Shown in pieces: positions 3 to 53,800 of a DNA stretch of 64,000 nt; within the stretch, counting starts at the first letter, position 1, and the number at the start of each line of letters is the position of its first letter. The position numbers and the translations under genes are program-made. This stretch comes from a virus, in the IMG/VR virus record IMGVR_UViG_3300021375_001810; one strand, 5' to 3'. The notes under the pieces are model-generated. The model was not told the origin of the DNA. It made no database searches and saw only the letters and a program-made list of their open reading frames with translations.

Positions 3-674
3 CTAATATCATACAGCATGGTATCAAAAGAAATGTTTGATGCAGATAGTAGCCTACGTGACTTACAAGGTCTTGTTGCGTATTGTGCTAGAGTCAGTAA
101 TCCTGCAAACCAAATGAACAGTGAAACTAGTGAAAAACTTATCAAGTATTTGATTAAACATGCCCACTGGTCACCACTAGAAATGGTCAATGCTTGTTTG
201 CAAATTGATACCACACGTGACATTGCACATCAAGTTGTACGTCATCGTAGTTTTGCATTTCAAGAGTTTAGTCAACGTTATGCTAATCCAGAAGAAATGG
301 GCGAACAATTTGTAATACGTGAAGCACGTTTACAAGACACTAAAAATAGGCAAAACAGTATTGCACTTGATTTAGAAGATCCTGCACAGGCTGCTATTGC
401 CGATAGATGGGTACAAGAACAGCAAGATGTAATATGGAGAGCTCAACAAGCATATAATTGGGCTATTGAAGCAGGTATTGCAAAAGAACAAGCCCGAAGT
501 GTATTACCAGAAGGAAATACAAAAACAAGACTTTATATGAATGGTACACTTAGAAGCTGGATACATTATATCGATCTAAGAGGCGCTAATGGAACTCAAC
601 AAGAGCATATGGATATTGCACATGCTTGCGCCAAAGTCATCGCAGACATCTTTCCTTTAATGAAAGAAATTTAA
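3..674 (+). CDS. thyX: FAD-dependent thymidylate synthase (probably 5'-truncated by the window edge)
   Basis: ThyX motif RHRSFAFQEFSQRY, plus YCARVS, HWSPLE and NGTLRSW. The frame is open from position 3 (LISYS...), so the true start is probably upstream. Confidence 0.95.
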   Translation, partial: LISYSMVSKEMFDADSSLRDLQGLVAYCARVSNPANQMNSETSEKLIKYLIKHAHWSPLEMVNACLQIDTTRDIAHQVVRHRSFAFQEFSQRYANPEEMGEQFVIREARLQDTKNRQNSIALDLEDPAQAAIADRWVQEQQDVIWRAQQAYNWAIEAGIAKEQARSVLPEGNTKTRLYMNGTLRSWIHYIDLRGANGTQQEHMDIAHACAKVIADIFPLMKEI

Positions 675-734: not shown

Positions 735-1460
735 TTATTCATCTCCATATAGTTGTAATATTTCTTTGACTGCATTATGTCTTTCAATATCTCCTTGTTC
801 AAAGCGGACTATGTCCAAATGATTCGCCTTAGAGGCTTCTAGTAGTTTCACAAAGTCTAGTAAGCCGTTATCTAGTAGTCTATCAGCCTGAGCTAAGTCG
901 CCTGTGACTGCCATTCTAGATCCTTCTCCTAAACGTGTAAGTAACATTTTCATCTGATTTGGCGTAGCATTTTGCATTTCATCTGCCAGTATATAAGAAT
1001 TTTTAAATGTTCGCCCACGCATAAATGCTAACGGAGCAATCTCAATTATGCCTTCTTCGATCATGCCTTCAATTTCTTTTGCATTAAAGTATTCTCTAAG
1101 AACATCAAATATTGGTCTTGTCCAAGGAGCCATTTTTTGTTCTAATGTGCCTGGTAGAAAACCTAAATCTTCGTCGACCGATACCGCTGGTCTTGTTACG
1201 ATAATTTTATCAATAGCACCTTCTTTAAAAAGTTTTACCGCTACTTGCACAGCCAAAATGGTTTTGCCTGTTCCTGCTGGACCAATACCGAAGACTATGT
1301 CTTTCTTTTGATCTAACAGTCTTAACACGTAGGATTCTTGGTTTAAATTTCTTGGAAGTATGTTTACTGAAGTTTTCTTTTGATAAATGTTTATGTCTAC
1401 TACATTGTTACTGTAGTTGTTTACGCTTTGTCTCTGACGAGACTTCTTTTTTGCACCCAT
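735..1460 (-). CDS. phoH: PhoH-family ATPase
   Basis: GPAGTGKT, LGFLPG, RGRTF, DEMQN and TGDLAQ motifs; SD GGAGG. Confidence 0.95.
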   Translation of the reverse strand: MGAKKKSRQRQSVNNYSNNVVDINIYQKKTSVNILPRNLNQESYVLRLLDQKKDIVFGIGPAGTGKTILAVQVAVKLFKEGAIDKIIVTRPAVSVDEDLGFLPGTLEQKMAPWTRPIFDVLREYFNAKEIEGMIEEGIIEIAPLAFMRGRTFKNSYILADEMQNATPNQMKMLLTRLGEGSRMAVTGDLAQADRLLDNGLLDFVKLLEASKANHLDIVRFEQGDIERHNAVKEILQLYGDE

Positions 1461-4445: not shown

Positions 4446-4770
4446 TTGTAGTACGATTCAGCCATTAGAAGTTTTTAAGACAGAAGTAGAACGACGTCCT
4501 CTTAATTTGCCTTTACCTGCACCAGCAGAACTTGAACAAGTCCGTTGGATAATAATTAATCGAGAAAATGCTGAAGAAGTATTTGCAGATTTAGAAAAGA
4601 AAAATATTGATCCTGTTATAATAGGATTAACAGATGAAGATTACGAGAACTTCAGAAAAAATTATGCACAGATCCGTGCATATATGATAAAACAAAACTC
4701 AATCATTGACGCTTACAAAGAGTACTATGAAGGTGAGCAAGATGACCAAAAGGTTGACAACAACCAATAG
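4375..4770 (+). CDS. Outer-membrane spanin lipoprotein (Rz1-like)
   Basis: Signal peptide with lipobox LTS-C25, Pro-rich segment, 71-nt overlap with the i-spanin. Confidence 0.75.
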   Translation: MLQKSQRSILYVLSLLILTTFLTSCSTIQPLEVFKTEVERRPLNLPLPAPAELEQVRWIIINRENAEEVFADLEKKNIDPVIIGLTDEDYENFRKNYAQIRAYMIKQNSIIDAYKEYYEGEQDDQKVDNNQ

Positions 4771-4782
4771 TTTTGTTATAAT
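4754..4782 (+). promoter_or_regulatory. Sigma70-type early promoter for iscS-iscU
   Basis: TTGACA-N17-TATAAT, exact consensus. Confidence 0.85.
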
Positions 4783-18782: not shown

Positions 18783-21452
18783 TTGAGTTACGTAGACGCA
18801 CTATTTGATCGCGACTCTGACATTATCAGAGTTGTCGAACGCAAAGATGGAAAAAGACATTTCCATGAATATCAAGCAAAATATACATTTTACTATAAAG
18901 ACCCTCGCGGTAAGTATAAGAGCGTTTATGGCGATCCTTTAAGTCGTATTGTTTGTAAGAATACAAAAGACTTTCGAAAAGAAGTAGCAATTAATCGAGA
19001 CAAACAACTTTTTGAAAGCGACATCAATCCTATTTTCCAATGTTTAAGCGAAAACTATCTTAACCAAGATGCTCCTAAACTAAACATTGCTTTCTTTGAT
19101 ATTGAGACAGACTTTGATCCAGAGCGTGGATTTGCCGATCCTGCTGATCCATTTATGCCTATTACTTCTATATCTGTATACTTACAGTGGTTAGAAACAA
19201 TGGTGTGTTTAGCAGTTCCGCCTAAGACACTTACAATGGAACAAGCTGAAAAAGAACTAGAAGGTATTGATAATGTAATGCTGTTTGAACAAGAAAGTGA
19301 AATGATTGATACTTTCTTAACACTAATTGAAGATGCTGATATTTTGTCAGGTTGGAACAGTGAAGGTTATGATATTCCGTATACTGTAAACAGAACTAGT
19401 CGTGTACTAAGCAAAGACGACACTAGACGTTTTTGTCTGTGGGGCCAGTTACCTAAAAAACGTGAATATGAAAAGTATGGCAAATCAGCTGTAACCTTTG
19501 ACCTAATAGGTAGAGTGCATTTAGATAGTTTAGAATTATATCGTAAATACACATATGAAGAACGACACACATATAGACTTGATGCCATTGGCGAAATCGA
19601 AGTTGGTGAAAACAAAGTCCCTTATGAAGGCACTTTGGACCAGTTGTACAACAATGACTTTAGAAAGTTCATCGAATACAACATACAAGATACCGCACTA
19701 CTGGACAAGTTGGACAAAAAACTAAGATTTATTGATCTTAGTAACGAACTTGCACACGCAAATACTGTTTTGCTACAGACCACAATGGGTGCTGTTGCTG
19801 TTACAGAACAAGCGATTGTAAACGAAGCACATCACAGAGGACTACAAGTTCCTAACAGACCTAAGCGAGATGACGAAAACACACAAGCCGCTGGTGCATA
19901 TGTAGCATTTCCGAAAAAAGGATTGCATAAATGGATTGCATCAATGGATTTGAATTCACTGTATCCGTCAGTAATTCGTGCATTGAATATGGCACCCGAA
20001 ACTATTATTGGACAAATACGTCCTGAGATGTCAGATGCTCGTGTACAAGAAGATATGGGCTTAAAGAAAAAGTCGTTTGCAGGAAGTTGGGAAGGACGTT
20101 TTAGTACAGAAGAATATGAAGCAGTCATGGAACAGAAACGTGACGTTGCTCTTACTGTTGACTTTGAAAACGGACAGACTGAAGTGTTTAGTGGTGCTGA
20201 ACTGTACAAGATTATTTTTGACAATAACAATCCATGGATGCTTAGTGCTAATGGTACAATCTTTACAACAGAGTTTGAAGGTGTTATTCCGGGTATTCTT
20301 GCAAGATGGTATAGTGAACGTAAAGACTTACAAGCACAACTTAAGAAAGCAAAAGATGCCGGTAATGCTGTTGAAACAGAATATTGGGATAAGCGACAGT
20401 TAGTTAAAAAGATTAACTTAAACAGTTTGTATGGTGCTATTCTTAATCCTGGTTGTAGGTTCTTTGATAAACGTATTGGTCAATCAACAACACTAACAGG
20501 TCGTACTATTGTTAAACACATGAGTGCAGAAGTTAACAAAGTTATTACAGGCACATATGACCATGTTGGTGAAGCAATGATATATGGTGATACTGACTCT
20601 TGTTACTTTAGTGCTTATCCAATCTTAAAAAATGACATTGACGCAGGAAAGATTCCTTGGGATAAAGATAATGTAATTACCCTTATGGATCAGGTGTGCG
20701 AAAAAGCAAATACAACGTTTGGCGACTTTATGATGAAAGCATTTCATTGTCCAAAGAGCCGTTCAGATGTTATTGCTGCAGGACGTGAAATTATTGCACA
20801 GTCTGGGTTATATATTACTAAGAAGCGTTATGCGGCATTAGTTATTGACAACGAAGGCTTTAGAACAGATATTGACGGTAAAGCAGGTAAGGTTAAAGCA
20901 ATGGGCTTAGACTTACGTAGATCAGATACACCTGTGTTTATGCAAGAGTTCTTAAGTGAGATATTACTTATGGTACTAACAGACGTACCGCAAGATGAAA
21001 TACTTGAACGTATTACTGTATTTAGAAAAGAATTCAGTGAACGTCCTGGTTGGGAAAAAGGTAGTCCGAAACGTGCAAACAAAGTAGGTCACTATAAGCG
21101 ATTAGAAGAAAAGCAAGGTAAGGCAAATATGCCAGGCCATGTACGGGCAAGCATTAACTGGAATACGCTGAAGCGTATGAACGGAGACAAATACTCACAA
21201 GAGATTGTTGACGGTATGAAAGTTATTGTTTGTAAACTAAAACAAAACCCTTTAGGATATACAAGTGTTGCTTATCCAACTGATGAGCTAAGACTTCCTG
21301 AATGGTTTAAGGACCTGCCATTTGACGATGCGGCAATGGCAGAAACTATTATTGATAATAAGTTAGACAACTTAATTGGTGTGTTAGATTATCCTTTAGA
21401 AGATACTAAACGTAATAATACATTCAATAGTTTGTTTGACTTCGGAGAATAA
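18783..21452 (+). CDS. Family B DNA polymerase (T4 gp43-like)
   Basis: Exonuclease FDIETD and GWNSEGYD; polymerase DLNSLYPS, KINLNSLYG, YGDTDS and KKRY. Confidence 0.97.
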   Translation: MSYVDALFDRDSDIIRVVERKDGKRHFHEYQAKYTFYYKDPRGKYKSVYGDPLSRIVCKNTKDFRKEVAINRDKQLFESDINPIFQCLSENYLNQDAPKLNIAFFDIETDFDPERGFADPADPFMPITSISVYLQWLETMVCLAVPPKTLTMEQAEKELEGIDNVMLFEQESEMIDTFLTLIEDADILSGWNSEGYDIPYTVNRTSRVLSKDDTRRFCLWGQLPKKREYEKYGKSAVTFDLIGRVHLDSLELYRKYTYEERHTYRLDAIGEIEVGENKVPYEGTLDQLYNNDFRKFIEYNIQDTALLDKLDKKLRFIDLSNELAHANTVLLQTTMGAVAVTEQAIVNEAHHRGLQVPNRPKRDDENTQAAGAYVAFPKKGLHKWIASMDLNSLYPSVIRALNMAPETIIGQIRPEMSDARVQEDMGLKKKSFAGSWEGRFSTEEYEAVMEQKRDVALTVDFENGQTEVFSGAELYKIIFDNNNPWMLSANGTIFTTEFEGVIPGILARWYSERKDLQAQLKKAKDAGNAVETEYWDKRQLVKKINLNSLYGAILNPGCRFFDKRIGQSTTLTGRTIVKHMSAEVNKVITGTYDHVGEAMIYGDTDSCYFSAYPILKNDIDAGKIPWDKDNVITLMDQVCEKANTTFGDFMMKAFHCPKSRSDVIAAGREIIAQSGLYITKKRYAALVIDNEGFRTDIDGKAGKVKAMGLDLRRSDTPVFMQEFLSEILLMVLTDVPQDEILERITVFRKEFSERPGWEKGSPKRANKVGHYKRLEEKQGKANMPGHVRASINWNTLKRMNGDKYSQEIVDGMKVIVCKLKQNPLGYTSVAYPTDELRLPEWFKDLPFDDAAMAETIIDNKLDNLIGVLDYPLEDTKRNNTFNSLFDFGE

Positions 21453-21453
21453 A

Positions 21454-21564
21454 ATGAAAGTTAATATACAATTGGAAATAGATACTGACAATAGTCAAGA
21501 CCTAAATACCATTGAAGAATTAATTGCAATGCTAAGACAATTAGCAGAAAATTACGAGGATTAG
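21454..21564 (+). CDS. 36-aa hypothetical protein (not in the ORF track)
   Basis: MKVNIQLEIDTDNSQDLNTIEELIAMLRQLAENYED with SD GGAG; fills the gap exactly. Confidence 0.55.
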   Translation: MKVNIQLEIDTDNSQDLNTIEELIAMLRQLAENYED

Positions 21565-21566
21565 TT

Positions 21567-21761
21567 ATGGAATGGGTATTAGTATACATCACTCTTACAT
21601 TTCACGGTCATCCAATAGCTGAAGAACAGGGTCGTTTTGACTCAATGGTTGAGTGCTTTAAGGCTAGAGAATACTTATCTTTAGAACTAGGTAGTACTGA
21701 TGGATATTATCCTGTAGGCTCACAGGCTGTGTGTGTAACAAACTTAAAGGAAATGCACTAA
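21567..21761 (+). CDS. Small hypothetical protein
   Basis: 64 aa, SD GAGG, two Cys. Confidence 0.65.
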   Translation: MEWVLVYITLTFHGHPIAEEQGRFDSMVECFKAREYLSLELGSTDGYYPVGSQAVCVTNLKEMH

Positions 21762-22177
21762 TGGATAGAGTAGGATTCACATGTAGTACATTTGATTTAT
21801 TACATGCAGGTCATGTACAAATGTTACGTGAAGCAAAAGAACAATGTGATTATCTAATTGTTGGATTGCAAGTTGATCCAAGTATGGACAGACCTGAAAA
21901 GAACTGTCCTATACAAACTATTGTTGAACGATATACTCAATTAAAAGCAGTAGGATATGTAGACGAAATCATTCCTTACGGAACTGAACAAGACCTAGAA
22001 GATATTTTAAGTATGTATACCATACATGTACGTATCCTAGGCGAAGAATATAGAGATAAAGAGTTTACCGGCAGAGATATCTGCAGAAAACGTGATATTG
22101 AAATATTCTTTAACAAACGAGATCATAGGTTTAGTTCGAGCGACCTACGAAAACGTGTTTCTGACAGACAGAAATAA
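21761..22177 (+). CDS. Glycerol-3-phosphate cytidylyltransferase-like (TagD family)
   Basis: FTCSTFDLLHAGH, YLIVGL, ER...VDEIIPY and RDHRFSSSDLR; ATG at 21761. Confidence 0.85.
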   Translation: MDRVGFTCSTFDLLHAGHVQMLREAKEQCDYLIVGLQVDPSMDRPEKNCPIQTIVERYTQLKAVGYVDEIIPYGTEQDLEDILSMYTIHVRILGEEYRDKEFTGRDICRKRDIEIFFNKRDHRFSSSDLRKRVSDRQK

Positions 22178-22186
22178 AATTAATGC

Positions 22187-22215
22187 TTGACAAAAACCTA
22201 AATATACTTTATAAT
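22187..22215 (+). promoter_or_regulatory. Composite promoter: sigma70 with a late box (CCTAAATA) in the spacer
   Basis: TTGACA-AAAACCTAAATATACTT-TATAAT. Confidence 0.85.
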
Positions 22216-22239
22216 AGAACTTAACATAGGAGAATATAA

Positions 22240-22968
22240 ATGAAAGATATATTACAAGACGTAGTCGCACACACACATGCACTAGGTTTTCTATCACTGG
22301 TTAAAGTTAACGCTGAAACAGAAACGGCTATTGATGCAATGGCAGAAGACAGATCAGTTATTTTAACAGCAACTACACATAACCCTGTATCAGAGTTTAT
22401 TGGAACGTTTGGTATGCCTAACTTAGACAAACTAAGTTTGCATTTAAAGAATCCAGAATACAAAGATAACGCAAAACTTGAAGTAGTTCAAGCAGACCGC
22501 AATGGCGAAACTATCCCAACACACATCCACTTTGAAAATGCAACAGGTGACTTTGAAAATGATTATCGCTTTATGAACAAAGCAATCATTGAAGAAAAAC
22601 TAAAGACTGTTAAGTTTAAAGGTGCATCATGGGACGTAACATTTGAACCAAGCATGGCAAGTATTGCACGTATGAAGTTACAAAGTGCTGCACACGCCGA
22701 AGAGCCTACATTTAATGTAACAACTACTGATGGTAATCTTGTGTTTAGTTTTGGTGATGCAAGTACACACGCAGGTAGTTTTATCTTCCAACATGCTGTT
22801 GAAGGTGAATTAAGTCATACTTGGAGTTGGCCTGTAGCACAAGTACAGTCTATCTTAAACTTAGATGGTAATATTACAATGAGTATTTCCAATCAAGGTG
22901 CTATGATGATTACTGTAGACAGTGGCTTAGCAAAATACGATTACATTTTGCCAGCACAGAGTAAGTAG
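22240..22968 (+). CDS. Putative sliding clamp (gp45/PCNA-like)
   Basis: 242 aa, apparent two-domain alpha/beta pattern, PCNA-like end (KYDYILPAQ), close to polB. Fold is inferred, not verified. Confidence 0.5.
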   Translation: MKDILQDVVAHTHALGFLSLVKVNAETETAIDAMAEDRSVILTATTHNPVSEFIGTFGMPNLDKLSLHLKNPEYKDNAKLEVVQADRNGETIPTHIHFENATGDFENDYRFMNKAIIEEKLKTVKFKGASWDVTFEPSMASIARMKLQSAAHAEEPTFNVTTTDGNLVFSFGDASTHAGSFIFQHAVEGELSHTWSWPVAQVQSILNLDGNITMSISNQGAMMITVDSGLAKYDYILPAQSK

Positions 22969-22971
22969 AAT

Positions 22972-24537
22972 ATGCGTAAAGACTTAACAGCAGAACAAAA
23001 TGACTATGCACATTTTCTTCCAGCATTAAGTGGTTTTTATGCAACGTATGTAGGCAAGCAGAGATTTCTAGATCCTGTAAAAGGTCCATATATTGAAGAT
23101 GCTCGTATACCTGCTAATTGGAATAATGGTGTAGAAAGTCTAAACTATCTTAATAAAAAAGAAGGTGCGTTTACATACAAGTGGACACTATATTCAGCAG
23201 GTCATGCTGACTTAGATACAAATAAAATCGTCCCAAAAGAAGATATGGTGCGTAATAGAGACAGAGCAAACACATGGATACTTGGAGACTCAGGTGGTTT
23301 CCAAATTGGTAAAGGTGTTTGGGAAGGAGACTGGAAAGATCCTAACTGTCCAAAGGCACAAAAGAAACGTGACGGTGTTTTACGTTGGATGGATGCATAT
23401 ATGGACTATGGTATGGTCCTTGATATTCCAGCCTGGGTAGCACGTTCACCCGAAGGTGCAAAAGCCACTGGCATTAGTACATATGATGAGGCTGTAAAAG
23501 CAACACGTATAAACAATGACTATTGGATGAAGCATAGAACAGGTGCTTGTAAATTCTTAAATGTATTACAAGGCGAGAATCATGCTGATGCAGAAGATTG
23601 GTATCAGCAAATGAAAGACTATTGTGATCCTAACATATATCCAGACAAACATTTTAATGGCTGGGCAATGGGTGGTCAGAATATGTGTGATGTACATTTG
23701 GTTCTTAAACGTCTAGTTGCATTGAGATTCGACGGACTACTGGAACAAGGCGTACATGATGTAATGCACTTCTTAGGTACAAGTAAACTAGAATGGGCTA
23801 CATTACTAACAGACATACAAAGAGCTGTTCGTAAGTATCATAACCCAAACTTTATGGTTACATTTGATTGTGCTAGTCCTTTCCTTGCTACAGCAAACGG
23901 GCAAGTATACATTCAAAACGAAACACCTGATAGAGGTAAGTGGACTTATCGAATGGTGCCTAGTATAGATGATAAAAAATATGCAACTGATACTAGAACA
24001 TTCCGCGATGCTGTATTACAAGACGGTATCTTTAAAAACTTTGAAGATAGTCCAGTAACTGACGGTATGCTTGTAAATGATGTATGTTACTATAAGCCCG
24101 GTGATCTAAACAAAATAGGTAAAGAAGGTAAAACATCTTGGGATTCATTTAGTTATGCAATACAAATGGGTCACAATGTATGGAGTCATATCAATGCTGT
24201 ACAAGAAGCAAACAGACAGTATGATGCAGGTATAACTCCTAAGATGTTAGTAGACGAACGTTTTGATAGAGTTTACTTTAAAGACATAGTCGAAGCAATC
24301 TTTATGACAGATGATAGAGATGAAGCAAATGCAATTATCGAAGAGTTCAGTAAATTTTGGATGAGCATACCTGGTACTAGAGGTGCTATTGGTAAAAAGA
24401 CTGTAAATTCTAGTACATATTTTAACGCATTGTTTGATGTAGAAGAATCGTCACAACAAGAAGAATTAGAAGCTGGCGAATATACTGAAGAACAAGAAAG
24501 TAAGTTAGGAGAACTTGAGGATGAGCAATTACAGTGA
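22972..24537 (+). CDS. TGT-fold guanine transglycosylase, DpdA-like (7-deazaguanine insertion)
   Basis: TGT motifs GDSGGFQ, MVLDIP, VLQG, GWAMGG, HFLG, TFDCASP and GHN; clustered with folE and queE. Confidence 0.85.
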   Translation: MRKDLTAEQNDYAHFLPALSGFYATYVGKQRFLDPVKGPYIEDARIPANWNNGVESLNYLNKKEGAFTYKWTLYSAGHADLDTNKIVPKEDMVRNRDRANTWILGDSGGFQIGKGVWEGDWKDPNCPKAQKKRDGVLRWMDAYMDYGMVLDIPAWVARSPEGAKATGISTYDEAVKATRINNDYWMKHRTGACKFLNVLQGENHADAEDWYQQMKDYCDPNIYPDKHFNGWAMGGQNMCDVHLVLKRLVALRFDGLLEQGVHDVMHFLGTSKLEWATLLTDIQRAVRKYHNPNFMVTFDCASPFLATANGQVYIQNETPDRGKWTYRMVPSIDDKKYATDTRTFRDAVLQDGIFKNFEDSPVTDGMLVNDVCYYKPGDLNKIGKEGKTSWDSFSYAIQMGHNVWSHINAVQEANRQYDAGITPKMLVDERFDRVYFKDIVEAIFMTDDRDEANAIIEEFSKFWMSIPGTRGAIGKKTVNSSTYFNALFDVEESSQQEELEAGEYTEEQESKLGELEDEQLQ

Positions 24538-24721: not shown

Positions 24722-25239
24722 AACGAGATTATGATGAAGGCGTTTTAGAAACACCTGTTTTATTTGTAGGTGTAGAAGTTGAAAAGACCCCGGCATTTGG
24801 TATGCAAACACTGTTTGTAGACGGCATCCAAGACATCGAAACTATACTTGAATACTATAACAAGTTAGAGTGTAAGCACATATTCTTTGGTGCAAATCAT
24901 TCATATAGTCCAAAAACAGCAGACGAGTTCGAACAGTGGGACAAATACATTTTAGAATTTGTAAAAGAAGGCTACTTATGTAGTTTAGATATTCCAAGTA
25001 CTATTAACTTAGAATGGTTCTTAGAAGGCGGATTAGTAGAGTATGATAACTTTATTCCGCAAATACGTGTTGTAGTACCTTATGTGAAACAGTGGAACTA
25101 TAATACTATGGTTAAGATTGACGACAAAGACTTTAAAGCAAGTAACCCAGGTGTTTGGTGTCATAGTCTACATGACTTAATGGATAGAGAAAAATTTACC
25201 GATTGGGGCAAATATGGCCTTGACAAAGTTATTAAATGA
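24718..25239 (+). CDS. Hypothetical protein in the deazaguanine operon
   Basis: 173 aa; FVGVEVEKTP..G..TLFV and HIFFGANHS. Confidence 0.8.
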   Translation: MKRDYDEGVLETPVLFVGVEVEKTPAFGMQTLFVDGIQDIETILEYYNKLECKHIFFGANHSYSPKTADEFEQWDKYILEFVKEGYLCSLDIPSTINLEWFLEGGLVEYDNFIPQIRVVVPYVKQWNYNTMVKIDDKDFKASNPGVWCHSLHDLMDREKFTDWGKYGLDKVIK

Positions 25240-25248
25240 AAGTATAAT
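25220..25248 (+). promoter_or_regulatory. Sigma70-type promoter
   Basis: TTGACA-N17-TATAAT. Confidence 0.8.
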
Positions 25249-25255
25249 ATAAACA

Positions 25256-25723
25256 ATGCAAGAACGTTATTACGACTACATGGTACGTAGAATGAGAGAG
25301 GAAGATAATAAAATGGCTGAAGAAAAAGCAATAAATAATGCACAAAAGAGTATATGGGTAACCTTTAGAAAAGAAGGTATTCATAAATATCCGGCGGCAC
25401 TAGATGACCCAAAACTTGCAACAGGCGATGACATGGACGTTTCGTTCCTTGGTTATCCTCATCGTCATATTTTCCACTTCAGGGTGCGTATCGAAGTGTT
25501 CCATGACGATAGAGACATCGAATTCATCCAGTTCAAAAGATGGCTCGAAAAGCTCTATAATGATTCCGACGGTGCGGTGCTCGTACTAGATTACAAATCG
25601 TGTGAAATGATCGCAGACGATCTATATTCACAAATTTCAGCAAAGTATCCCGGCCGCTTTGTTGAGATTGATGTCTCCGAAGATGGAGAGAATGGCTGTC
25701 AAATCTTTTACCCAAAACCCTAA
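25256..25723 (+). CDS. QueD-like T-fold protein, DpdL-like (putative 7-carboxy-7-deazaguanine decarboxylase)
   Basis: EGIH...LGYPHRHIF (LxxxHRHxF where QueD has CxxxHGH), SCE, VSED; alternative start at 25313. Confidence 0.7.
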   Translation: MQERYYDYMVRRMREEDNKMAEEKAINNAQKSIWVTFRKEGIHKYPAALDDPKLATGDDMDVSFLGYPHRHIFHFRVRIEVFHDDRDIEFIQFKRWLEKLYNDSDGAVLVLDYKSCEMIADDLYSQISAKYPGRFVEIDVSEDGENGCQIFYPKP

Positions 25724-25749: not shown

Positions 25750-25959
25750 ATGGCAAAGAACTTTCCGAAAGTTATGGATATCTATGACGATCTTGACAAG
25801 TTTCGCGACTACTGTCGCTTTGAAGGTAAAGTCTTTAATGAAAAAGACTTATACAAAGAAGGTGCACCTGTATGGGAAGCATATAAAAAATACCAAGGCT
25901 GGCTTCGTGCAAAAGCTCGCAATGCAGGACGTAACAATATAAACAACCGGAGGAACTAA
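25750..25959 (+). CDS. Small hypothetical protein
   Basis: 69 aa, SD AAGGA, coupled to the next gene. Confidence 0.7.
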   Translation: MAKNFPKVMDIYDDLDKFRDYCRFEGKVFNEKDLYKEGAPVWEAYKKYQGWLRAKARNAGRNNINNRRN

Positions 25960-27023
25960 TGACTATCTATATCGTAGACATTGAAGCAGTTGATACACGC
26001 TATACTAAACAATGGAAAGAACATCTTCCAAAGCAACTGCAACGAGCTACGAATGAAAAAGTAGAAGTTGTTAGTGGTGGAGATACTCCTCAGGCTACAA
26101 CACCCGGGGCGTTTCTTAACTTCGGCGGTACAAATGTTTATAAAAGCAAACAGTTAGAAAAAATAGGGGAAATGTTTTGTAACGGAACTATTAATGATGG
26201 TGATTATTTCCTATACACTGATGCTTGGAATCCTACTGTTATACAACTTCGTTACATGGCAGAACTATTAGGCGTTGATATTTGTGTTGGCGGCTTGTGG
26301 CATGCTGGCAGTTATGATCCACAAGATTTTCTAGGCAGACTTATAGGAGATAAACCTTGGGTCAGACATGCAGAATATTCAATGTTTGAATGTTACGATG
26401 ACAATTTTTTTGCAAGTGAATTTCATTGGGATATGTTTGCAGAAACGTTTGCACTCGAAATGGGTGTAGTTGATCAAACTAAAATGAAACGTGTAGGATG
26501 GCCTATGGAATATCTAAAGAACAGTTTAGATAGTTACAAAGGTATGGAGAAGAAAGATTTAATCTTATTCCCGCATCGAGTTGCTCCTGAAAAACAAGTT
26601 GATATTTTTAGAGACTTAAAAGAACGTTTACCTCAATATGAATTTGTAGTATGTCAAGAACAACAACTTACAAAAAATGAATATCACAATTTACTAGGCG
26701 AAGCTAAAATTGTGTTTAGTGCTAACCTACAAGAAACATTAGGTATTAGTTGGTATGAAGGAGCATTAGTTAATGCTATACCTATGGTGCCAGATAGACT
26801 AAGTTACAGTGAAATGGCACTGCCTGAATTTAAATACGACAGCAAATGGACTGAAGACTTTGATGCATACTTACATCACAAAGACAAAGTCGTTGCCCAA
26901 ATAGTTGAATACATAGAAAACTATGAGTCTTTCCTTCCAAGTATTGCAAAACAAGTATCTAAACTTAATAAAGAATTCTTTAGCGGTAAAGACTTGTATA
27001 CGGTGATTAGTAATGAACGATGA
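25959..27023 (+). CDS. GT-B fold glycosyltransferase
   Basis: FPHRVAPEKQ, LLGEAKIVFSANLQETLGISWYEG and PDRLSYSE, typical of a GT-B C-terminal domain. Confidence 0.8.
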   Translation: MTIYIVDIEAVDTRYTKQWKEHLPKQLQRATNEKVEVVSGGDTPQATTPGAFLNFGGTNVYKSKQLEKIGEMFCNGTINDGDYFLYTDAWNPTVIQLRYMAELLGVDICVGGLWHAGSYDPQDFLGRLIGDKPWVRHAEYSMFECYDDNFFASEFHWDMFAETFALEMGVVDQTKMKRVGWPMEYLKNSLDSYKGMEKKDLILFPHRVAPEKQVDIFRDLKERLPQYEFVVCQEQQLTKNEYHNLLGEAKIVFSANLQETLGISWYEGALVNAIPMVPDRLSYSEMALPEFKYDSKWTEDFDAYLHHKDKVVAQIVEYIENYESFLPSIAKQVSKLNKEFFSGKDLYTVISNER

Positions 27024-28131: not shown

Positions 28132-28715
28132 AACATACTAATTACTTTAATGGCGACATACAAACATATGACGACATATTTACAGAAGAGCAACTAAATG
28201 CAATAGCGGCTGAAGTTACAACACTGAACTATGGCTATGGAAGTATTGATCAAATGTCATTACAAAACTTTCAAGCACCTACTGGGATGGTTAACGTAGG
28301 TAAAGGTAACGACAACTGGTATAAAGTAGTTGAAGACTATTGCCGTAAAAACATTCCGGAACTAAAAGATATTCCAGAAGGCAGGCATCACGTTAATTTA
28401 TTTGGACCACGTGAAAATGCAATGTATCACGAAGATTCCGAAGACGGGTGGACTGCTATTTTTTATGCAAACCAGTATTGGGACATAAACGAAGGCGGCG
28501 AAACTAAATTTATAATGCCCGCTGATATGTTAGATGATAGTAAAGAAATTAAAACGGACACATTAGATTATCCTGTTGTACTTTCAATAGCACCTATACC
28601 AGGAAGGTTAGTGATATTTAAAGGTAACTTACTACATTCAGCAACTGGGTTTAGAAATACATGGCGTTTTACACCTACTATACAATTTTATAAGACCGGA
28701 GATAAAGAAGAATGA
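28128..28715 (+). CDS. 2OG-Fe(II) dioxygenase
   Basis: YHED (HxD), WDINEGGET, PGRLVIF, distal H in LLHSA, and R in WRFT. Confidence 0.85.
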   Translation: MKHTNYFNGDIQTYDDIFTEEQLNAIAAEVTTLNYGYGSIDQMSLQNFQAPTGMVNVGKGNDNWYKVVEDYCRKNIPELKDIPEGRHHVNLFGPRENAMYHEDSEDGWTAIFYANQYWDINEGGETKFIMPADMLDDSKEIKTDTLDYPVVLSIAPIPGRLVIFKGNLLHSATGFRNTWRFTPTIQFYKTGDKEE

Positions 28716-29269
28716 AGAAACATTATTACACATGGGGACACGTTGAAAAAATGTGTATCGATATCGCAATGCAGATGCAGAAAGATAACTGGAAGCCAGA
28801 CTATATTGTAGGTATTACACGTGGTGGTAATGTGCCTGCTACAATACTGTCGCATATGTTAGGCGTTCGTTGTGAAGCACTTAAAGTAGCATTACGTGAT
28901 GGAGATAGTCATCAGGAAAGCAACTGTTGGATGTCTAGTGATGCGTTTGGTTACGTTGACGAAGAAGAACGTGCTGTAACTAAAAGCCGTTGGGACGTTA
29001 ACAAACGTAAAAATATTTTAATTGTAGACGATATTAACGATACAGGTGCAACACTTGAGTGGATCAAACAAGATTGGCAGGCAAGTTGTTTACCTAACGA
29101 AAGTAGTTGGGATACTGTATGGAATAAAAATGTAAGATTTGCTACACTAACTGAAAACCTTGCAAGTAATTTTGACGGTGTTAATTATTCGGCACACGAA
29201 GTTAACAAAGCAGATGAAGATATTTGGTTAGTTTATCCTTGGGAAATAGTAGGCACGTATGATGCATGA
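28712..29269 (+). CDS. Purine phosphoribosyltransferase (Gpt-like)
   Basis: IVGITRGG, PRPP loop ILIVDDINDTGATL, WLVYPWE. Confidence 0.88.
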   Translation: MKKHYYTWGHVEKMCIDIAMQMQKDNWKPDYIVGITRGGNVPATILSHMLGVRCEALKVALRDGDSHQESNCWMSSDAFGYVDEEERAVTKSRWDVNKRKNILIVDDINDTGATLEWIKQDWQASCLPNESSWDTVWNKNVRFATLTENLASNFDGVNYSAHEVNKADEDIWLVYPWEIVGTYDA

Positions 29270-29856: not shown

Positions 29857-29885
29857 TTGACAAAAACCTAAATACAATGTATAAT
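29857..29885 (+). promoter_or_regulatory. Composite promoter (sigma70 plus late box), twin of 22187
   Basis: TTGACA-AAAACCTAAATACAATG-TATAAT. Confidence 0.85.
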
Positions 29886-29947
29886 GTAAATTATATTGTA
29901 CATTGTATTTTAAACGGCAATCCACTGCCTTAACATCGGAGATTAAA

Positions 29948-30637
29948 ATGGGTAAAGTAAGACAAATTAGAGCAAAGTTAGAAGATGCTGGCATTCGTTA
30001 TTGGGCGGGTGACAACATTTCAAAAGTGCTACAAAAACACGACAAAGAAGAATTAATTAACGAAGCAACTAGAGCTTTTGAAGGTGTGTTAGATGCACTG
30101 TTAATTGATCGAATTAATGATCCTAACAGCCAAGGTACAGCAAGGCGTCTTGCTAAAATGTACTACAATGAAATTATGGCAGGACGTTATGATCCAGCAC
30201 CAAGTGCAACATCATTTCCAAACGATTCAACAGACCGTTATGAAGGTATGCTAGTAGTGCGTTCGGAACTAAAAAGTATGTGTTCACATCATCACCAGCC
30301 AGTAGCAGGTGTTGCATACATTGGTATTATTGCCGCAGACAAATTAATTGGTCTAAGCAAGTACACACGTATTGCACAGTGGTGTGCTAGACGTGGAACA
30401 CTACAAGAAGAACTTGCAAACGAAATTGCACGTGAAATTCAAAAAGTTACAGATGCAGAACACTTAGGTGTTTATATTCAAGCAACACACGGTTGTTGTG
30501 AGAATAGAGGCATTATGGCAACTAGCAGTCTTACACAAACAACTGTGTTGCGTGGTGCGTTTAAGGATGACGCTGGTACAAAGAAAGAGTTCTTTGACAA
30601 TATTAAATTACAACAAGAATATGCTTGTGGAAAGTAG
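29948..30637 (+). CDS. folE: GTP cyclohydrolase I
   Basis: SMCSHHHQP, IGLSKYTR, LQEEL and ATHGCCENRG; ATG at 29948 after GGAG. Confidence 0.93.
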   Translation: MGKVRQIRAKLEDAGIRYWAGDNISKVLQKHDKEELINEATRAFEGVLDALLIDRINDPNSQGTARRLAKMYYNEIMAGRYDPAPSATSFPNDSTDRYEGMLVVRSELKSMCSHHHQPVAGVAYIGIIAADKLIGLSKYTRIAQWCARRGTLQEELANEIAREIQKVTDAEHLGVYIQATHGCCENRGIMATSSLTQTTVLRGAFKDDAGTKKEFFDNIKLQQEYACGK

Positions 30638-30642
30638 ATAAT

Positions 30643-31527
30643 ATGAAATTAAGATATTCAGAAGCGTTTTATAGCGTACAAGGTGAAGGCAAGTTTGTAG
30701 GTGTGCCTAGTGTATTCCTACGTACATTCGGTTGCAACTTTCGTTGTATGAACTTTGGACTAGAACGTGGGACACCTGCTAGAGCAGACGGTGTAAAACA
30801 TAATCCCGAAGTAAAAGAATTACTTGACAGCAATATAATTAACACTGTTGAAAAATTTACAGACTTACCTGTAATACATACAGGCTGTGATACATATGCA
30901 AGTATCTATCCAGAATTTAAAAAGTTTATGATGGATAGAACTGTAGATGAAGTAGTTGAACACTTATTGAGTTTGACTCCTAACGGACAGTGGACATTAG
31001 ATAATGGACAAGATATTCATTTAATATTCACAGGCGGAGAACCTTTGTTAGGGTGGCAAAGATTCTATACAGAGCTATTAGAACACCCGCGTATGAAGGA
31101 CTTAAAAAATGTTACATTTGAAACAAATACTTCGCAGAAGTTACGACCTGATTTTAGAGACTATCTTAACAATCAAGACAGATTTGAAGTCACTTGGAGT
31201 TGTTCCCCAAAACTTAGTGTCAGCGGAGAACGCTGGGAGGATGCTATTAACCCTGATATTGCTAGTGAGTATTTCAGTGTTCTTAATAGTAAACTTTATC
31301 TTAAGTTTGTTGTGGCTGATAGCATTGACGTTGAAGAAGTTAAAAGAGCTGTTGCTGAGTATAGGAGCGCCGGGGTCGAGTGTCCGGTATATCTTATGCC
31401 GCTCGGAGGACGCTCTGAAGAATATAAACTTAACGTTAAAGAAGTGGCTGAATTATGTATGGCGCAAGGATGGAGGTTTACACCAAGACTCCATATCGAC
31501 CTTTTCGGCAATGCATGGGGGACTTAG
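30643..31527 (+). CDS. queE: 7-carboxy-7-deazaguanine synthase (radical SAM)
   Basis: EAFYSVQGEG...FLRTFGC, GCDT, FTGGEPL, ETN, SPKL, LKFVV and PRLH. Confidence 0.9.
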   Translation: MKLRYSEAFYSVQGEGKFVGVPSVFLRTFGCNFRCMNFGLERGTPARADGVKHNPEVKELLDSNIINTVEKFTDLPVIHTGCDTYASIYPEFKKFMMDRTVDEVVEHLLSLTPNGQWTLDNGQDIHLIFTGGEPLLGWQRFYTELLEHPRMKDLKNVTFETNTSQKLRPDFRDYLNNQDRFEVTWSCSPKLSVSGERWEDAINPDIASEYFSVLNSKLYLKFVVADSIDVEEVKRAVAEYRSAGVECPVYLMPLGGRSEEYKLNVKEVAELCMAQGWRFTPRLHIDLFGNAWGT

Positions 31528-47860: not shown

Positions 47861-50800
47861 TTATTTTGGTAAGTCAATTGTTTGATCTCTCAAGAACTCT
47901 GCAATTGGATTTTGTGCAACTCTTAGTGATTCTCCTGACTCTTGCCATGTTTTTCCTATCTTTCTTATTATAAACACTTTAGTTCCTGCTACTGGAATGG
48001 TGTTCAATGTTATTGCATTGTTACTTATCGTAAATTCTGCATCTACGGTAATATCTGCTTCTGGGCTATCTTGATCAATAGTGGTGTCAAATACACTTAT
48101 TGCTTGTTTTCTTAGTCGTCTACCTGCAACAAACACTTCAAACTCATTAATATTAGTTGTAGCCCAATCTAATGCATATGTTGCTGTTGAACCGTCTGCT
48201 TCAAATTGCAATGTTCTTATCTCATCAGTATAAGGAACTGTTTGATAAGCACTTTGATCCATTAATTCGGTGCCTGCATTGTATGTTGTTTTAACACCTG
48301 TTCCTAATGTACCACGTCTTAATTGTGATAAAACATTATCTTCTACTTTAAAGTATTCAATCCTTTCACCGTCAATAAACACTACTCCTGGAACATTAAT
48401 GCTAGGATCTGGTTGACTAATTCCTGTAGCATTAACTAGTTTAATATCCTTATCAAAATAATTTAATTCTTGATCTAGCACAAATATCTTACTACTATTT
48501 AAGCGTTTATAATGAGTACGATTTAACATATCCTTAAATATTCTAAATCCAAATCTATCATTAACTCTATTACCTGCAAAGTGTACAACATCTAACCTGT
48601 CATCTTTTACTAAAGGTTTAGTAACTTTTAAATATCTTAAATCTTCAGTTATAGTATAATCTACGTTAGCACTTAGTAGTTGTCCATTTAATGATACCCA
48701 AAGATATGCTGGATCAACTGCTGGTAAACGAAGTTCTACTAAACCTTGTGTTAACTTGTTATATTCGTAATAATCATCACTGCCTAATACTAGTGTACTT
48801 CTTGAAACAACGTCTTGTGTTACACGTTCTATATTTTGTATATCGTGTTTGTTAAATTTGTAAACATCTACTTTAGCATCAAGTGCAGGGGTATCTGTTA
48901 ATATAATTCTATCACCAGATTCTACACCTTTAAATCCTGTTACAGAAGTTGCTATTGCGCCACTTAGTAAGCCTTGAATTTGTATTGTTGGATCAGTAGT
49001 TAACGAAGCAATTATATTAGCCGAGTCGCCAATTACAACAAGTATATTACCTGCAAAAGTTTTTACTGTTGCTTCAAACTGTGTACTATCCGCTGAACCT
49101 ATACGAACTTCTTCACCTTGCGAGAACTGGCCTGTAATACTATCCGAGTCTAATGTTAGTTCAACGTTTCTATCAAATTCATATTCACCGTCATTAAGAA
49201 CAAATACGTCTAATGTATCTCCATTTACGCCTACGTTATCAAATAATACAACAGCACTATTATTAAAGTCCCAGTTAAAGTCCTGTAAGTAACTTAACTG
49301 TACGTCATTTAGATAAACTGCAATATCTTCTGGACTTACTGATGCCCTTGCTACTTGATGTAGATCAAATGTATATTCTCTGCTTGGAGATATTATAAAT
49401 TGTTGATTATATCCTGGATATAATATTTTGTTATCTACTTTAACAACTACATTATGGCTTAATGGTAAAGAACTAGATGGTGGTGTACTTAAAGTAAATC
49501 CAACACTACTTCCGTCGCCTTCAAATCTATCTACAGTTACTTCACTATAACTTAAACTAGATGAAGCATATACAGCATAGTATATAAATGCACCAGGAGC
49601 AGGTGGTGTAATAAATTTAAGGCCTACTAATCCTGCTCTACCGTCATATGTTGAATCTGTTTCAAATATATCTGCAACTGCTTTCTTTCCGTCAACACTA
49701 ATGTATGTTGAGATATTATCATTCCATAATACGTTAGTTACAAATATTTGTGTACTACCGTCTGCAACAAAGTTATCAATGTCAAGTATGTTTTCACCGT
49801 TACCACTCATTGATATAATTGATACACGCTGACCAACTGTTAATGCCTCATTAAATGTTAATGTTTTTTCAACAAAGTCAATTTCATATGGATAAGATGA
49901 GTCATCTATTGGTCCTTGGATCACATTATCTACTTTAACAATTAATGATTCTATGTTGTGCGGTAATAAACTTAAATCAAACGTTTTATTTTGTGTTGCT
50001 GATGCTGTATAATTTCTTACAGCAATAGTACTTCCGCCGTCTGCTACTTTATCATAAACTTTAATATCTAGTGTATCAAGTACTTGTCCAGGAACTAATT
50101 CTTCAGGTCCTTTAGATGTAGTTAGTGTAACAAATCCGTCGCCATCAATTGTTATATCTTCTGATTTTAATCCCGTTGCTGTACCATATGCTAAATTTCC
50201 GCCTTCAATTACAGTATCAAGTGTGAAAGTATCAGGAAGGAAACTACCATCACTAGATGCTTTCCTAACAATAATAGTGTCTCCTGCACCAACTTCGTCG
50301 CCTGATGAAATTACATCAACAACATAACCCGACACGCCTGTGTCATTTTCGCCAAAGATACTTTCTATTGTGGCAAAATCTGGTTTGCTCAACACTGGAG
50401 CAAAGTATGTATTGAACAATGCATAACCTAATGGGTTATTTGCCAACATACCTGCTGGTGTCTTTAAACTATCATCCCATTCAGGACTAAGGGAGCCGCC
50501 ATCCCAGTATACACTCATATCCCACATTGACCAGTTTACCAAGTAAGTGTATTCTGTGTATGCCACTGCAGCTTTCTCTGGATCTGTATTCCAATCAGTA
50601 GCATAACCACTCGGATCATATAATCCTGCGTCAATTGCTTCTTTCATAGCAAGATGTAATGCTGTGGTTTTCCAATCGAAACTTGGTTCATTACCAATTC
50701 TAATATCTGGATTCATTTCCACTGCGTCTGAACTACCAGGCACTGCACCCGGAATACCAAATGCGTGTATGGTGTGAAATATGTGTTCAAATATTTCTTC

Positions 50801-53800
50801 TATATCTCTACGCTGTGTTGGAGGATTGTTTCCGTTAATATTCTTATACCATACCATATCCTTTTGAGCAACACTGTCATTGAATGCTTGTAGTCCTGCA
50901 TAACTTGGTATGCCGGCATCTTCTAACCAGTTAGGTGTATATGTACTTCCGCCGCCATAGCCAACTCTTTGTATTGTAGGTATTCCTGCGTGTTTCGTTC
51001 CAGCGTCACCTTTTAGTGTTTTAAGAAAATTGCGTTGATGTGTAGTGTTAATGCCAGCACCGTTAGGATCAGTCATTAATTCAAATGTTCTTGCAGTTTT
51101 CTTTGCCCATTCATTTGGTACTGCTAGTTGTCCGCCTACTGCTCCTGCAACAACAAGTTTCAATCCGTTAACAGTTAATGCCCTGTCAAACACTGTACCA
51201 TTGTTCTCAGCAATTAATGCACCGTTGTTGTATTCTGAGTCTAACGAACTTCCTTCTCCATTAATATTAAGTCCGTCATTGTCTAAGAATATAGTTGTTT
51301 GAACACCATCACCTGTTAAACTTTGTGTTATTGCATTTGGATTTGCTACAGGATTACCTGTGCCAAAGTTTGGATCATCAATTCTTACACCATTTAGATA
51401 TACATTATACACTACATCGTTTTCTAAAGGTTTAGAAAGAGTTATTTGTATTGTACTTCCGTCTAGTGTAATTATTTCATCTTCAAATCCGTCATCGTAA
51501 CTATCCCAAGTAGTTGCATACCAAGGATCATTATCCCAACCTAGTTTGGCACCAAATTCAAAACTCTTAACTTGTACTCCACCGTAGTCAACACCATCCA
51601 TTAACTGTGCAAAATCTTTTCCGTATAATCCTGATTGTGCTTCATATAAGAATTGTATGCGTTCTGCAGCATTTAGTAAGTCTAATGATCTGTTGTATGT
51701 TATTAATACAGTCGAATCTTTTGCTGGAGCAAAACTAAACTCAATTTGCCCTGTTTTTCTAGTATACCCCTTTGTCGAATCCTCAACATTTTTATATTCG
51801 TATTGGCTACTTAATGCTTGTATACCATCTATAGTTACGTTAATTGTATTAGTACTCAACTGTAAAGGCCATTTAGTATTAAATTTAAGTTGGCTGCCTG
51901 ATGCTACAAACGTTTCTTGTTCTTGTATATCTGCTAGTACAATATCTGTTGTAATCCTATCAAACTTTTGGGCAATTTTTGTTGCTCGAACTTTACCGTT
52001 GCCTATTATTACTGATACTACAGGTTGTGTACCTTCTTGTGTTTGTGTTCCTTCAAACTGTATTAACGGTGCTGAGTAATATCCTGTACCTGGATTTGTA
52101 ATTTCAATCTTTTTAATAACACCGTTACCAATAAACGCTTTTGCTGTTGCGCCTGTTCCGCCGCCACCTACAAATGTTACTAGAGGAGTTTCAGTATATC
52201 CTGATCCTCCGTCTTTAATAAGTACTGAATCAATAAAGTATGAAGAATTATCTACCCAATGTCTTGCAGGATAGTCTGATACGTCTGTAAGTACACTTGA
52301 TAATCTGTCATTCTCCACAATAAAGTCTGATGGTACAATTTTACCAATATTACTATTATACACAGCAGGTAAATCATAATCAGTTATAACCGAACTAGTA
52401 TTATCTTTACCTTCGTATGCACTTAAATATTCACGTATATTAGTCTTATAAGGTTTAACTTCGTTAACATACTCTTCAAAACTAGGTAAGTTGTCGTTTT
52501 GATAATTTGTTTTCTGTACTAAATTACCAACATTATGTTTTGCTTTGATGAAACTTGTTTTGAACGCCCAGTCTACATATGATTGCTCTGAGAATACATA
52601 TCGTAAACATGCAAAGAATAAATTGTTATATTCTAACTCTAAATTACCTACAAAAATGTTATCTCGTAATGCTGTTAATATTTTGCGTAATGCAATCTTG
52701 TTAGTTGAATCAGAGCTAATTGTAGTTACAAATTGCAATGTACCATCTTGCCTACCAATTGTTCTATAGTTAACAGTATAGTCTGGAACGTCAGCATTTA
52801 GTGTTTTTTCTAATAGTAACCAACCGCCTGTGCCAACATTTTCAACTTTAACAATATCACCAATTTTATCATCAATTTCATTTAATTCGTATGTTTCTTG
52901 TACAAGGTAATCAATTGATGTTAATTGACTAAATCCTGTATCGTACCAGTCAATGTAATTCCAATAATCAGATACATCATACTTTTCTTTTGATGTAATT
53001 GTAAATTCTTGTGTTTCTAAATCCCATCCGTAAATAGCCCAATCACCGTCAAGTGTTGAATCAGCACCAACAAGTACACTTAGTGGACGTACTATTAGTG
53101 TTAACGAATCTGCATAATTTCTACCGCCGTTAACAACTGTTACAGATGTAATTTGACCTAGTGCATTAATTGTACTTTCTAATTCTAATCCTTCACCCGT
53201 TCCAATTGCTGTAATTTTTGGACCTTTTCTTATTCCACCTATTGTTGTGTTGTAAGATGGGTCTGAATAACTATAACCCTTATTAATGATGTTTACTTGT
53301 GTTACTATTCCGTTAACAACTACAGGTTCTAGTATTGCAACTTGTGCTTTGGCAGTACCAATAATACTTAACTCAGCATCTGTGTCAACTCGACGATCCC
53401 ATGTTGCAGAAATTGCACTAGGCTCTGGATCTTTTTCTAATAAAGTAGTAATATTATAATTGTCATCAATTAATTCTTGCTTAATAACTTTATTAATTCT
53501 AGTAAATGCTTGACTTACTGCTTCTTCTCTATTTACAAACCAACTTTGTCTTGGTCTATTTAATACGCCATATTTTTGTTTTGCACTCAGAGCTGGATCT
53601 GGAACCGGTCTACCGTATGCATCTTGGCCAATAAGACTATCAAACCATTTAAGTTCTAATGTAGACTTAGGCTTACTAGTGTAAAGTCCTTCACTAATAA
53701 TTTGATATTCGTTGTGTACGTTAATACTCTGATCGTCAATTGTCCAATATCTAAAGTTTACTGCAATATCTTGATTTTCAAGTAACTTGTCGCAATTTCT

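Follow-up and report, generated by a model that had tools for sequence, protein, structure and literature searches.

The virus record IMGVR_UViG_3300021375_001810 of IMG/VR contains a 64,000-nucleotide (nt) stretch of DNA (hereafter, the window) that encodes, in this order on the plus strand, a T4-type family B DNA polymerase (PolB), a predicted PCNA-type sliding clamp, and an enzyme with the fold of tRNA-guanine transglycosylases (TGT) and DpdA. The polymerase and the transglycosylase have an FN[SA]LFD peptide in common near their C-termini. With moderate confidence, we consider clamp-tethered, replication-linked base exchange to be the best overall explanation of this arrangement. The source of the window is a marine jumbo myovirus of the Rak2/121Q, Atu_ph07, and PA5oct kind. 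The G+C content of the window is about 36%, and its genes lie on the plus strand until about 40 kb. A megablast search of the region against phage records found no nucleotide-level match among deposited phages. For genome-wide checks, a complete relative of 357,559 bp (G002) was used.

The PolB gene (18783..21452, plus strand) encodes a protein of 889 amino acids (aa) that matches PF00136 (9e-35), PF03104 (6e-18), and phrog_262 (3e-198), and is 42–46% identical to the PolB of Atu_ph07, Phosso, Vibrio phage 2.275.O, and the 121Q group. The gene is uninterrupted in the window. The homolog in Atu_ph07 (L087, 966-3935) is split into two open reading frames (ORFs), that of PA5oct (L002, 1-4840) is interrupted by a Hef-like homing endonuclease, and that of the metagenomic lineage L093 (4955-9154) carries an intein. 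The window protein ends in NNTFNSLFDFGE (in a longer reading of the same end, DTKRNNTFNSLFDFGE). This end includes the presumed clamp-binding tail TFNSLFDFGE (21420..21449, plus strand), with FNSLFD itself at 21423-21440. The tail is kept as TF[NSGT]SLF[DE]FG[EDG] across 80 related IMG/VR loci, and a C-terminus of the form [LMF]F-x-aromatic is also present in PA5oct, 2.275.O, Phosso, Atu_ph07, 121Q, and metagenomic lineages. In T4 and RB69, the C-terminal tail of PolB is the element that binds the gp45 clamp. Because the window PolB belongs to the T4 polymerase family (phrog_262) and has a tail of the same character, this tail would by homology be a clamp-binding element.

The clamp gene (22240..22968, plus strand) lies 0.8 kb downstream of PolB; an ORF of 64 aa and a gene for a cytidylyltransferase-like protein (21731-22177, PF01467) occupy the interval. 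A first-pass annotation made from the sequence alone had placed a putative clamp gene between PolB and the transglycosylase and had named the fold of its product as a test that could refute the proposal. The placement was right, though two ORFs separate the gene from PolB, and a clamp fold was found. The AlphaFold2 model of the 242-aa product (pLDDT 92.9, pTM 0.90) matches PCNA in Foldseek over the full-length protomer (E 1.4e-11, TM 0.68–0.72), and aligns with yeast PCNA in VIA-align over 224 of its 242 residues (Z 18.4, rmsd 3.2). As modeled, the product is a PCNA/gp45-type protomer with two topologically repeated domains, of the kind that would form a trimeric ring. Sequence searches of Pfam and PDB gave no match for the protein; the best result of a PDB profile search was DnaN (E 0.78), and the hhalign comparison with T4 gp45 was not significant (E 0.13). 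Homologs of this clamp stand beside PolB in PA5oct, 2.275.O, Phosso, Atu_ph07, 121Q, and SCTP-2. An identical copy was found on a 339-kb contig, and 7838 relatives occur in public metagenomes, many of them from Tara and other marine samples. PCNA-type clamps had already been noted in this jumbo phage group by an earlier comparative study. No clamp loader was seen inside the window; a gp44-type loader is encoded in G002 (phrog_168, E 1.9e-76). Phosso gene 439, located beside the Phosso transglycosylase gene, was considered as a second clamp and rejected by profile search.

The transglycosylase gene (22972..24537, plus strand; 521 aa) encodes a TGT/DpdA-fold protein presumed to exchange guanine in DNA for 7-deazaguanine. 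Its AlphaFold2 model (pLDDT 91) matches the Zymomonas mobilis TGT in Foldseek (E 8e-7, prob 1.00), and VIA-align gives Z values of 18–19.1 over 293–319 residues against the TGTs of T. maritima, P. horikoshii, Z. mobilis, and human. An hhalign comparison pairs the family with a TGT-domain protein of Vibrio phage GR7B at 98.7% probability, with the catalytic motifs in register. Among 62 diverse homologs, the residues S75, D106, S107, G109, D151, P153, H266, G269, and D299 are invariant. The three Asp residues lie in the motifs DSGGFQ (D106), LDIP (D151), and FDCASP (D299), which are the same in the GR7B protein. The active-site motif DSGGFQ (D106–Q111; 23287..23304, plus strand), which aligns with its GR7B counterpart, is taken here to correspond to D102–Q107 (DSGGYQ) of the Z. 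mobilis TGT, an assumption that fits the numbering of the named Y106F mutants. The catalytic roles of the Asp residues are likewise presumed from the Z. mobilis numbering. In the BFVD collection of viral models, the nearest protein is the 2.275.O homolog. Next come the TGT of Achromobacter phage Motura (E 4e-11) and a protein of Vibrio phage nt-1 (E 4e-10) that is presumably DpdA2. The phiST protein M4SLA5, presumably DpdA3, is more distant (E 3e-3).

The family comprises 976 metagenome cluster representatives at E 1e-3 or better. Neither the single sequence nor a profile of the 62 homologs has a match in Pfam (including PF01702), PHROGs, or PDB sequences, and Pfam assigns no family to any of the 62 homologs. 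The family was recognized only by the fold search and by hhalign with the GR7B protein. The CxCxxC zinc motif is absent: the segment PCNCPVCS of the GR7B protein aligns to NFEDSPVT of the window protein, in columns where the family consensus is not Cys. These proteins form a transglycosylase subfamily without the canonical zinc motif that is missed by Pfam and PHROGs. The description of the enzyme as DpdA-like, given in the first-pass annotation, holds for the fold and the catalytic motifs and fails for the Pfam TGT match and the zinc motif. On its model, the 521-aa protein is probably a DNA guanine to 7-deazaguanine exchange enzyme; this is the best reading, in which both the substrate and the base are deduced.

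Near its C-terminus, the transglycosylase carries STYFNALFDVEE (in a longer reading, KKTVNSSTYFNALFDVEE). The polymerase-like LF peptide TYFNALFDV lies at 24415..24441 (plus strand), with FNALFD itself at 24421-24438. The common FN[SA]LFD on which the original proposal rested is thus present in both proteins, and among all six-frame ORFs of at least 50 aa in the window, it is confined to these two. FNALFD is followed by a 32-residue acidic tail that ends in LGELEDEQLQ. In the AlphaFold2 model, residues 474–504 have pLDDT values below 50 and are disordered, a short helix (481–488) covers the motif, and the tail is not docked onto the catalytic domain. Comparison of 57 unique tails of the clade revealed three conserved islands in a variable acidic linker, namely IPGTRGAIGKKTVN, the ST-F--LF motif, and the terminal KLE-LEDEQL. 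The conserved basic linker ahead of the peptide is IPGTRGAIGKKTVNSS (24367..24414, plus strand; column identity at least 80–95%). F-x-x-L-F is conserved within the clade, and the linker after it varies. This variable acidic linker and a conserved terminal amphipathic helix (KLGELEDEQL; model helix residues 506–520) occupy 24442..24534 (plus strand). The KLExLEDEQL helix (24487-24531) is recognizable in PA5oct and in other representatives with an internal LF motif, and was not found in any other ORF of G002.

As a second protein with the polymerase tail, the transglycosylase is a candidate client of the clamp. All 80 of the IMG/VR relatives keep both the PolB tail (TF-x-SLF[DE]FG) and the transglycosylase motif. 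Searches of IMG/VR for related loci with the PA5oct and 2.275.O transglycosylase homologs found nothing. Similar tails are found on the transglycosylases of PA5oct, 2.275.O, and five metagenomic lineages, and matching PolB and transglycosylase tails occur in eight lineages that encode this clamp. The cognate pairs (PolB and transglycosylase, respectively) include HFDSLFGW and SFNSLFDVD in PA5oct, NNTDLFDW and NNNDLFGW in Vibrio phage 2.275.O, VNKMFTF and AMKLFDFGG in L090, LDDLFDF and VNNLFDFS in L092, AMKLFNY and AKSLFEF in L093, LSTFFEF and NLSLFEF in L097, and FNDLFTF and IVEGLF in Phosso. In the eight lineages, the flanks of the two tails co-vary. When flanking positions were scored with the [LM]F core excluded, the cognate pairs reached 75 versus a permuted mean of 27, and 692 of the 40,320 permutations gave an exact p = 0.017. 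The motif has been kept in transglycosylase homologs, as the original proposal would have it, and tracks the tail of the cognate polymerase. Among the 91 full-length distant representatives, 48 carry an [LMIF]F peptide that is either C-terminal or followed by an acidic tail, compared with 12% of shuffled tails. Across lineages with 30–45% identity, the motif remains C-terminal or nearly so, although the surrounding tail cannot be aligned. In most lineages, the transglycosylase gene lies right behind the clamp gene.

For two tail-less homologs, neither PolB nor a clamp is encoded within about 10 kb. One of them lies in a bacterial-looking region that also encodes topoisomerase I, a TIR protein, and OGG, and the other lies in an element with integrases. 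In the former (L150, the context of P0240), the homolog lies beside the OGG-like glycosylase and near the TIR-domain protein, which suggests that the family may also serve in cellular or defense contexts. A search of genome contigs with the homolog P0240 found nothing.

Several points weigh against clamp-tethered exchange. With a matrix built from 11 PolB tails only, the transglycosylase motif ranks 7th in the window, and G002 has an equally good match inside the folded domain of an unrelated protein. The tail resemblance within a single genome is within chance. By the rule given above, 43 of the 91 representatives lack the motif. In the clades of the window and PA5oct, the motif is internal, and after its D comes a V where polymerase tails have an aromatic residue. 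The Phosso homolog has a divergent tail (IVEGLF) and its gene lies away from the clamp. The zinc motif is missing, and enzyme activity and substrate are model-based predictions rather than proven properties. In T4, the alpha-glucosyltransferase co-purifies with gp45, and modification concomitant with replication has been proposed (Sommer 2004; PMC13216743). However, this contact was recently found not to be the main determinant of the modification level (PMC13216743), so that tethering need not matter much for function. The tail of the T4 enzyme, KEQFDIITK, is moreover unlike that of gp43. The significance of the common tail comes from its conservation and co-variation across lineages.

The resemblance may alternatively be convergent or generic, with a peptide that serves the transglycosylase itself (for example by mediating dimer contact, by acting with the acidic tail to autoinhibit the enzyme, or by a role in turnover) and has no partner in common with PolB. 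The frequency of LF peptides among shuffled tails, the chance matches that score as high as the window motif, the representatives without the motif, and the +2 residue that differs from polymerase tails in two clades all fit this explanation. It is unlikely in view of the co-variation between cognate tails, the constant position of the motif in otherwise unalignable tails, and the model that leaves the tail undocked from the catalytic domain.

A few other LF peptides were noted in G002 and in GR7B. In G002, a 412-aa protein with QTFDDLFDES was considered as an extra clamp client, and was judged a chance match because the peptide is inside a folded region. A 125-aa protein ending in TSLF was also rejected, since its tail is not conserved, and it served as a negative control. 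A FkbM-type methyltransferase in the same genome (8481-9410, minus strand; PF05050) ends in DPQLFEVEQ, close to the motif DALFEVEQ of the G002 transglycosylase, and an O-methyltransferase-type protein (50021-50602, minus strand) ends in ARLFELNV. These two methyltransferase-like proteins may be further clamp clients or chance matches. The sister TGT-domain protein of GR7B (L100, 4602-6218), whose family occurs in 200–230-kb phages, contains NKTLFGKEEED with a long basic tail behind it. A profile search of GR7B found no homolog of this clamp family.

In the mechanism that we favor, clamp-tethered base exchange would take place in a T4-type replisome composed of PolB, a homotrimer-type PCNA-fold clamp, and a gp44-type loader, the last taken from the complete relative. 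The TGT-fold enzyme, encoded behind the clamp gene, would be expressed from the same early-type promoter. The [F]-x-x-[LM]-F-[DE] peptide in its disordered tail, as on the polymerase C-terminus, would dock in a hydrophobic pocket of the clamp and hold the enzyme on clamps at or just behind the fork. The two enzymes could share one trimeric ring, or the transglycosylase could ride on clamps that stay behind on the DNA. Once tethered, the enzyme would scan the newly made duplex processively and swap guanine in double-stranded phage DNA for a 7-deazaguanine made by FolE, QueE, and a DpdL-like enzyme. Binding of the LF peptide to the phage clamp is reasonably likely. We infer with less confidence that the tether makes modification truly co-replicative. 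More tentative still is the generalization that a large, environmentally abundant TGT-fold family of DNA transglycosylases consists of clients of phage PCNA-like clamps, with the tether turning a slow post-replicative exchange into a processive and replication-coupled one, and with the acidic helix recruiting a further replisome component, such that the enzyme would be an integral replisome subunit.

The peptide might instead bind another partner, such as the host beta clamp, a phage single-strand-binding protein, or a helicase-primase. The link between modification and replication would then persist through a different hub. The motif that binds the bacterial beta clamp, QL[SD]LF, is similar to the LF core, as seen in LSLFEF of L097, and the second conserved tail helix makes more than one contact likely. 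We nevertheless find a partner other than the phage clamp quite unlikely. The C-terminal tail of T4-type PolB is the gp45-binding element in T4 and RB69, the jumbo phages encode their own PCNA-fold clamp and loader, the transglycosylase gene directly follows the clamp gene in most lineages, and the homologs without the motif have no phage clamp nearby.

The layout of the locus is compatible with joint expression of the clamp and the transglycosylase. A perfect sigma-70 promoter (TTGACA-17-TATAAT, a 12/12 consensus match) lies ahead of the two genes at 22187..22215 (plus strand). The clamp stop codon is followed after 3 nt by the transglycosylase start codon, with no predicted terminator in between. 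All of this agrees with the promoter in common that had been proposed for the two genes. The window has four such perfect sites (4754-4782, 22187-22215, 25220-25248, and 29857-29885), whereas 0.06 would be expected. The spacers of the promoters at 22187-22215 and 29857-29885, the latter ahead of folE-queE, are nearly identical (TTGACAAAAACCTAAATA...). This common spacer suggests that both halves of the pathway may be co-regulated. One promoter for the clamp and the transglycosylase, with a near-identical one ahead of folE-queE, fits co-expression with early replication functions.

Several genes downstream of the transglycosylase are related to 7-deazaguanine synthesis. A T-fold protein (25256..25723, plus strand; phrog_17812) contains LGYPHRHIF. 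The sequence LxxxHRHxF is the signature of the proposed CDG decarboxylase DpdL (PMC10516641), and the window protein fits this signature rather than the CxxxHGH of QueD, as a DpdL-type QueD paralog. Since queC was not found in the window, 7-deazaguanine or one of its derivatives may be the base that is inserted. The folE gene (29903-30637, plus strand; PF01227, 2e-38) is followed by a queE-like gene (30625-31527, plus strand; phrog_2076, 1.5e-49). The C-terminus of the QueE-like protein, HIDLFGNAWGT, was considered as a clamp peptide and set aside as what we take to be an ordinary QueE end. A glycosyltransferase-like gene (25959..27023, plus strand) travels with the transglycosylase. Its product is 43–48% identical to that of the gene after the PA5oct transglycosylase (L002, 7626-8687) and to a Phosso "glycosyltransferase" encoded beside the clamp (L086, 5832-6923). 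The recurrence of this gene hints at a sugar-decorated deazaguanine. Elsewhere, transglycosylase homologs adjoin folE, queC, queE, queF, and phosphoribosyltransferase genes. A phosphoribosyltransferase gene is found near the transglycosylase in several unrelated lineages (window, 28712-29269; L090, 7981-8430; L095, 2846-3301; L098, 5962-6489), and its product might recycle the guanine freed by exchange or act on a deazapurine.

The PA5oct homolog of the transglycosylase is 32% identical to the window protein and is encoded directly behind PA5oct's own clamp gene. The DNA of PA5oct resists restriction enzymes with G in GA or GG contexts, which points to a modified G (PMC12191111), and an earlier comparative study credited this phage with a system for deazaguanine synthesis and incorporation. 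It is very improbable that the window protein is a TGT that modifies tRNA, or else an inactive relative, and that its replisome neighborhood is incidental: the case for an enzyme comes from fold and motifs, with neither a Pfam match nor a zinc motif, but the three Asp residues and DSGGFQ recur in 62 diverse homologs, the gene repeatedly neighbors PolB and the clamp as well as folE, queE, queC, and phosphoribosyltransferase genes, the DNA of PA5oct behaves as if its G were modified, and published work treats DpdA as a signature of 7-deazaguanine phage DNA.

Other genes in the window include thyX (3-674, plus strand; PF02511), phoH (735-1460, minus strand; PF02562), and a giant ORF of more than 5379 residues (47861-64000, minus strand) that extends past the window edge.

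Published work concludes that base exchange brings 7-deazaguanines into phage DNA once it has been replicated; how some phages replace nearly all of their guanines and others less than 1% has been left open (PMC10516641). A clamp tether would be a concrete and testable answer to this difference, and if it exists, it could explain near-complete replacement of G by 7-deazaguanines, which may here be glycosylated. A two-residue change from LF to AA would test the tether, and gp314 to gp316 of PA5oct provide a culturable model with DNA that already shows the behavior of G-modified DNA. A search for copies of the polymerase tail peptide can uncover new candidate clamp clients in uncharacterized phages. 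The adjacent clamp has thousands of marine homologs, and the transglycosylase subfamily has approximately 976 cluster representatives in metagenomes.

Among known systems, the gp45 clients of T4 and RB69 can be compared in terms of both peptide and replisome. The T4 proteins gp43, gp55, and gp30 are known partners of gp45. A search of T4 DNA for LDFL[FY] found five sites, three of which are in the genes for gp43 (C-terminus KASLDFLFG), gp55 (C-terminus SPSLDFLYEAND), and the ligase gp30 (internal EGLDFLFD), with SLDFL[FY] as the common peptide. Shi 2018 (cited in PMC7824862) is a source for these partnerships, and a citation for the ligase-clamp contact was found. As in T4 and RB69, unrelated proteins of one phage have in common a short hydrophobic-acidic peptide that resembles the tail of the polymerase and is usually C-terminal; the polymerase is from the T4 family (phrog_262), and the clamp protomer has two domains. 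The putative client here, a DNA base-exchange enzyme, has no counterpart among the T4 clients; the core reads x-x-[LM]-F-[DE] where T4 has LDFL[FY], and no sequence similarity between the clamp and gp45 could be detected. The T4 alpha-glucosyltransferase, the closest functional precedent, is similar in being a phage DNA-modifying enzyme tied to the phage sliding clamp, a tie that is predicted in the present case. It differs in that it glucosylates hydroxymethylcytosine already in DNA, whereas the window enzyme would exchange the whole base.

The phage enzymes DpdA1–4 have the TGT fold and are encoded with FolE, QueD, QueE, and in some cases DpdL, and their insertion of 7-deazaguanine has been proposed to be post-replicative (Hutinet 2019; Cui 2023, PMC10516641). 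The window enzyme has the same fold and FolE, QueE, and DpdL-like neighbors. However, it is longer (521 aa), lacks CxCxxC and any Pfam or PHROG match, and has a polymerase-like tail. In the phage DpdA literature, neither such a tail nor a link to the replisome was found described, and a literature search found no paper linking a DpdA or TGT enzyme to a sliding clamp. In eukaryotes, DNMT1, which with PCNA is the other close precedent, and UNG2 are brought to replication sites by a short peptide, the PIP box, that binds a pocket of PCNA. The window system is comparable in that a DNA-modifying or base-excising enzyme is involved and the clamp has the PCNA fold (Z 18.4). It is different in that it belongs to a phage and to another enzyme family, and the peptide is not a canonical PIP box (QxxLxxFF), as STYFNALFDV has neither the Q nor an aromatic pair in register. 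Clamp-bound DNA-modifying enzymes as such are already known; the new element in the window would be a clamp-client-type peptide on a base-exchange transglycosylase.

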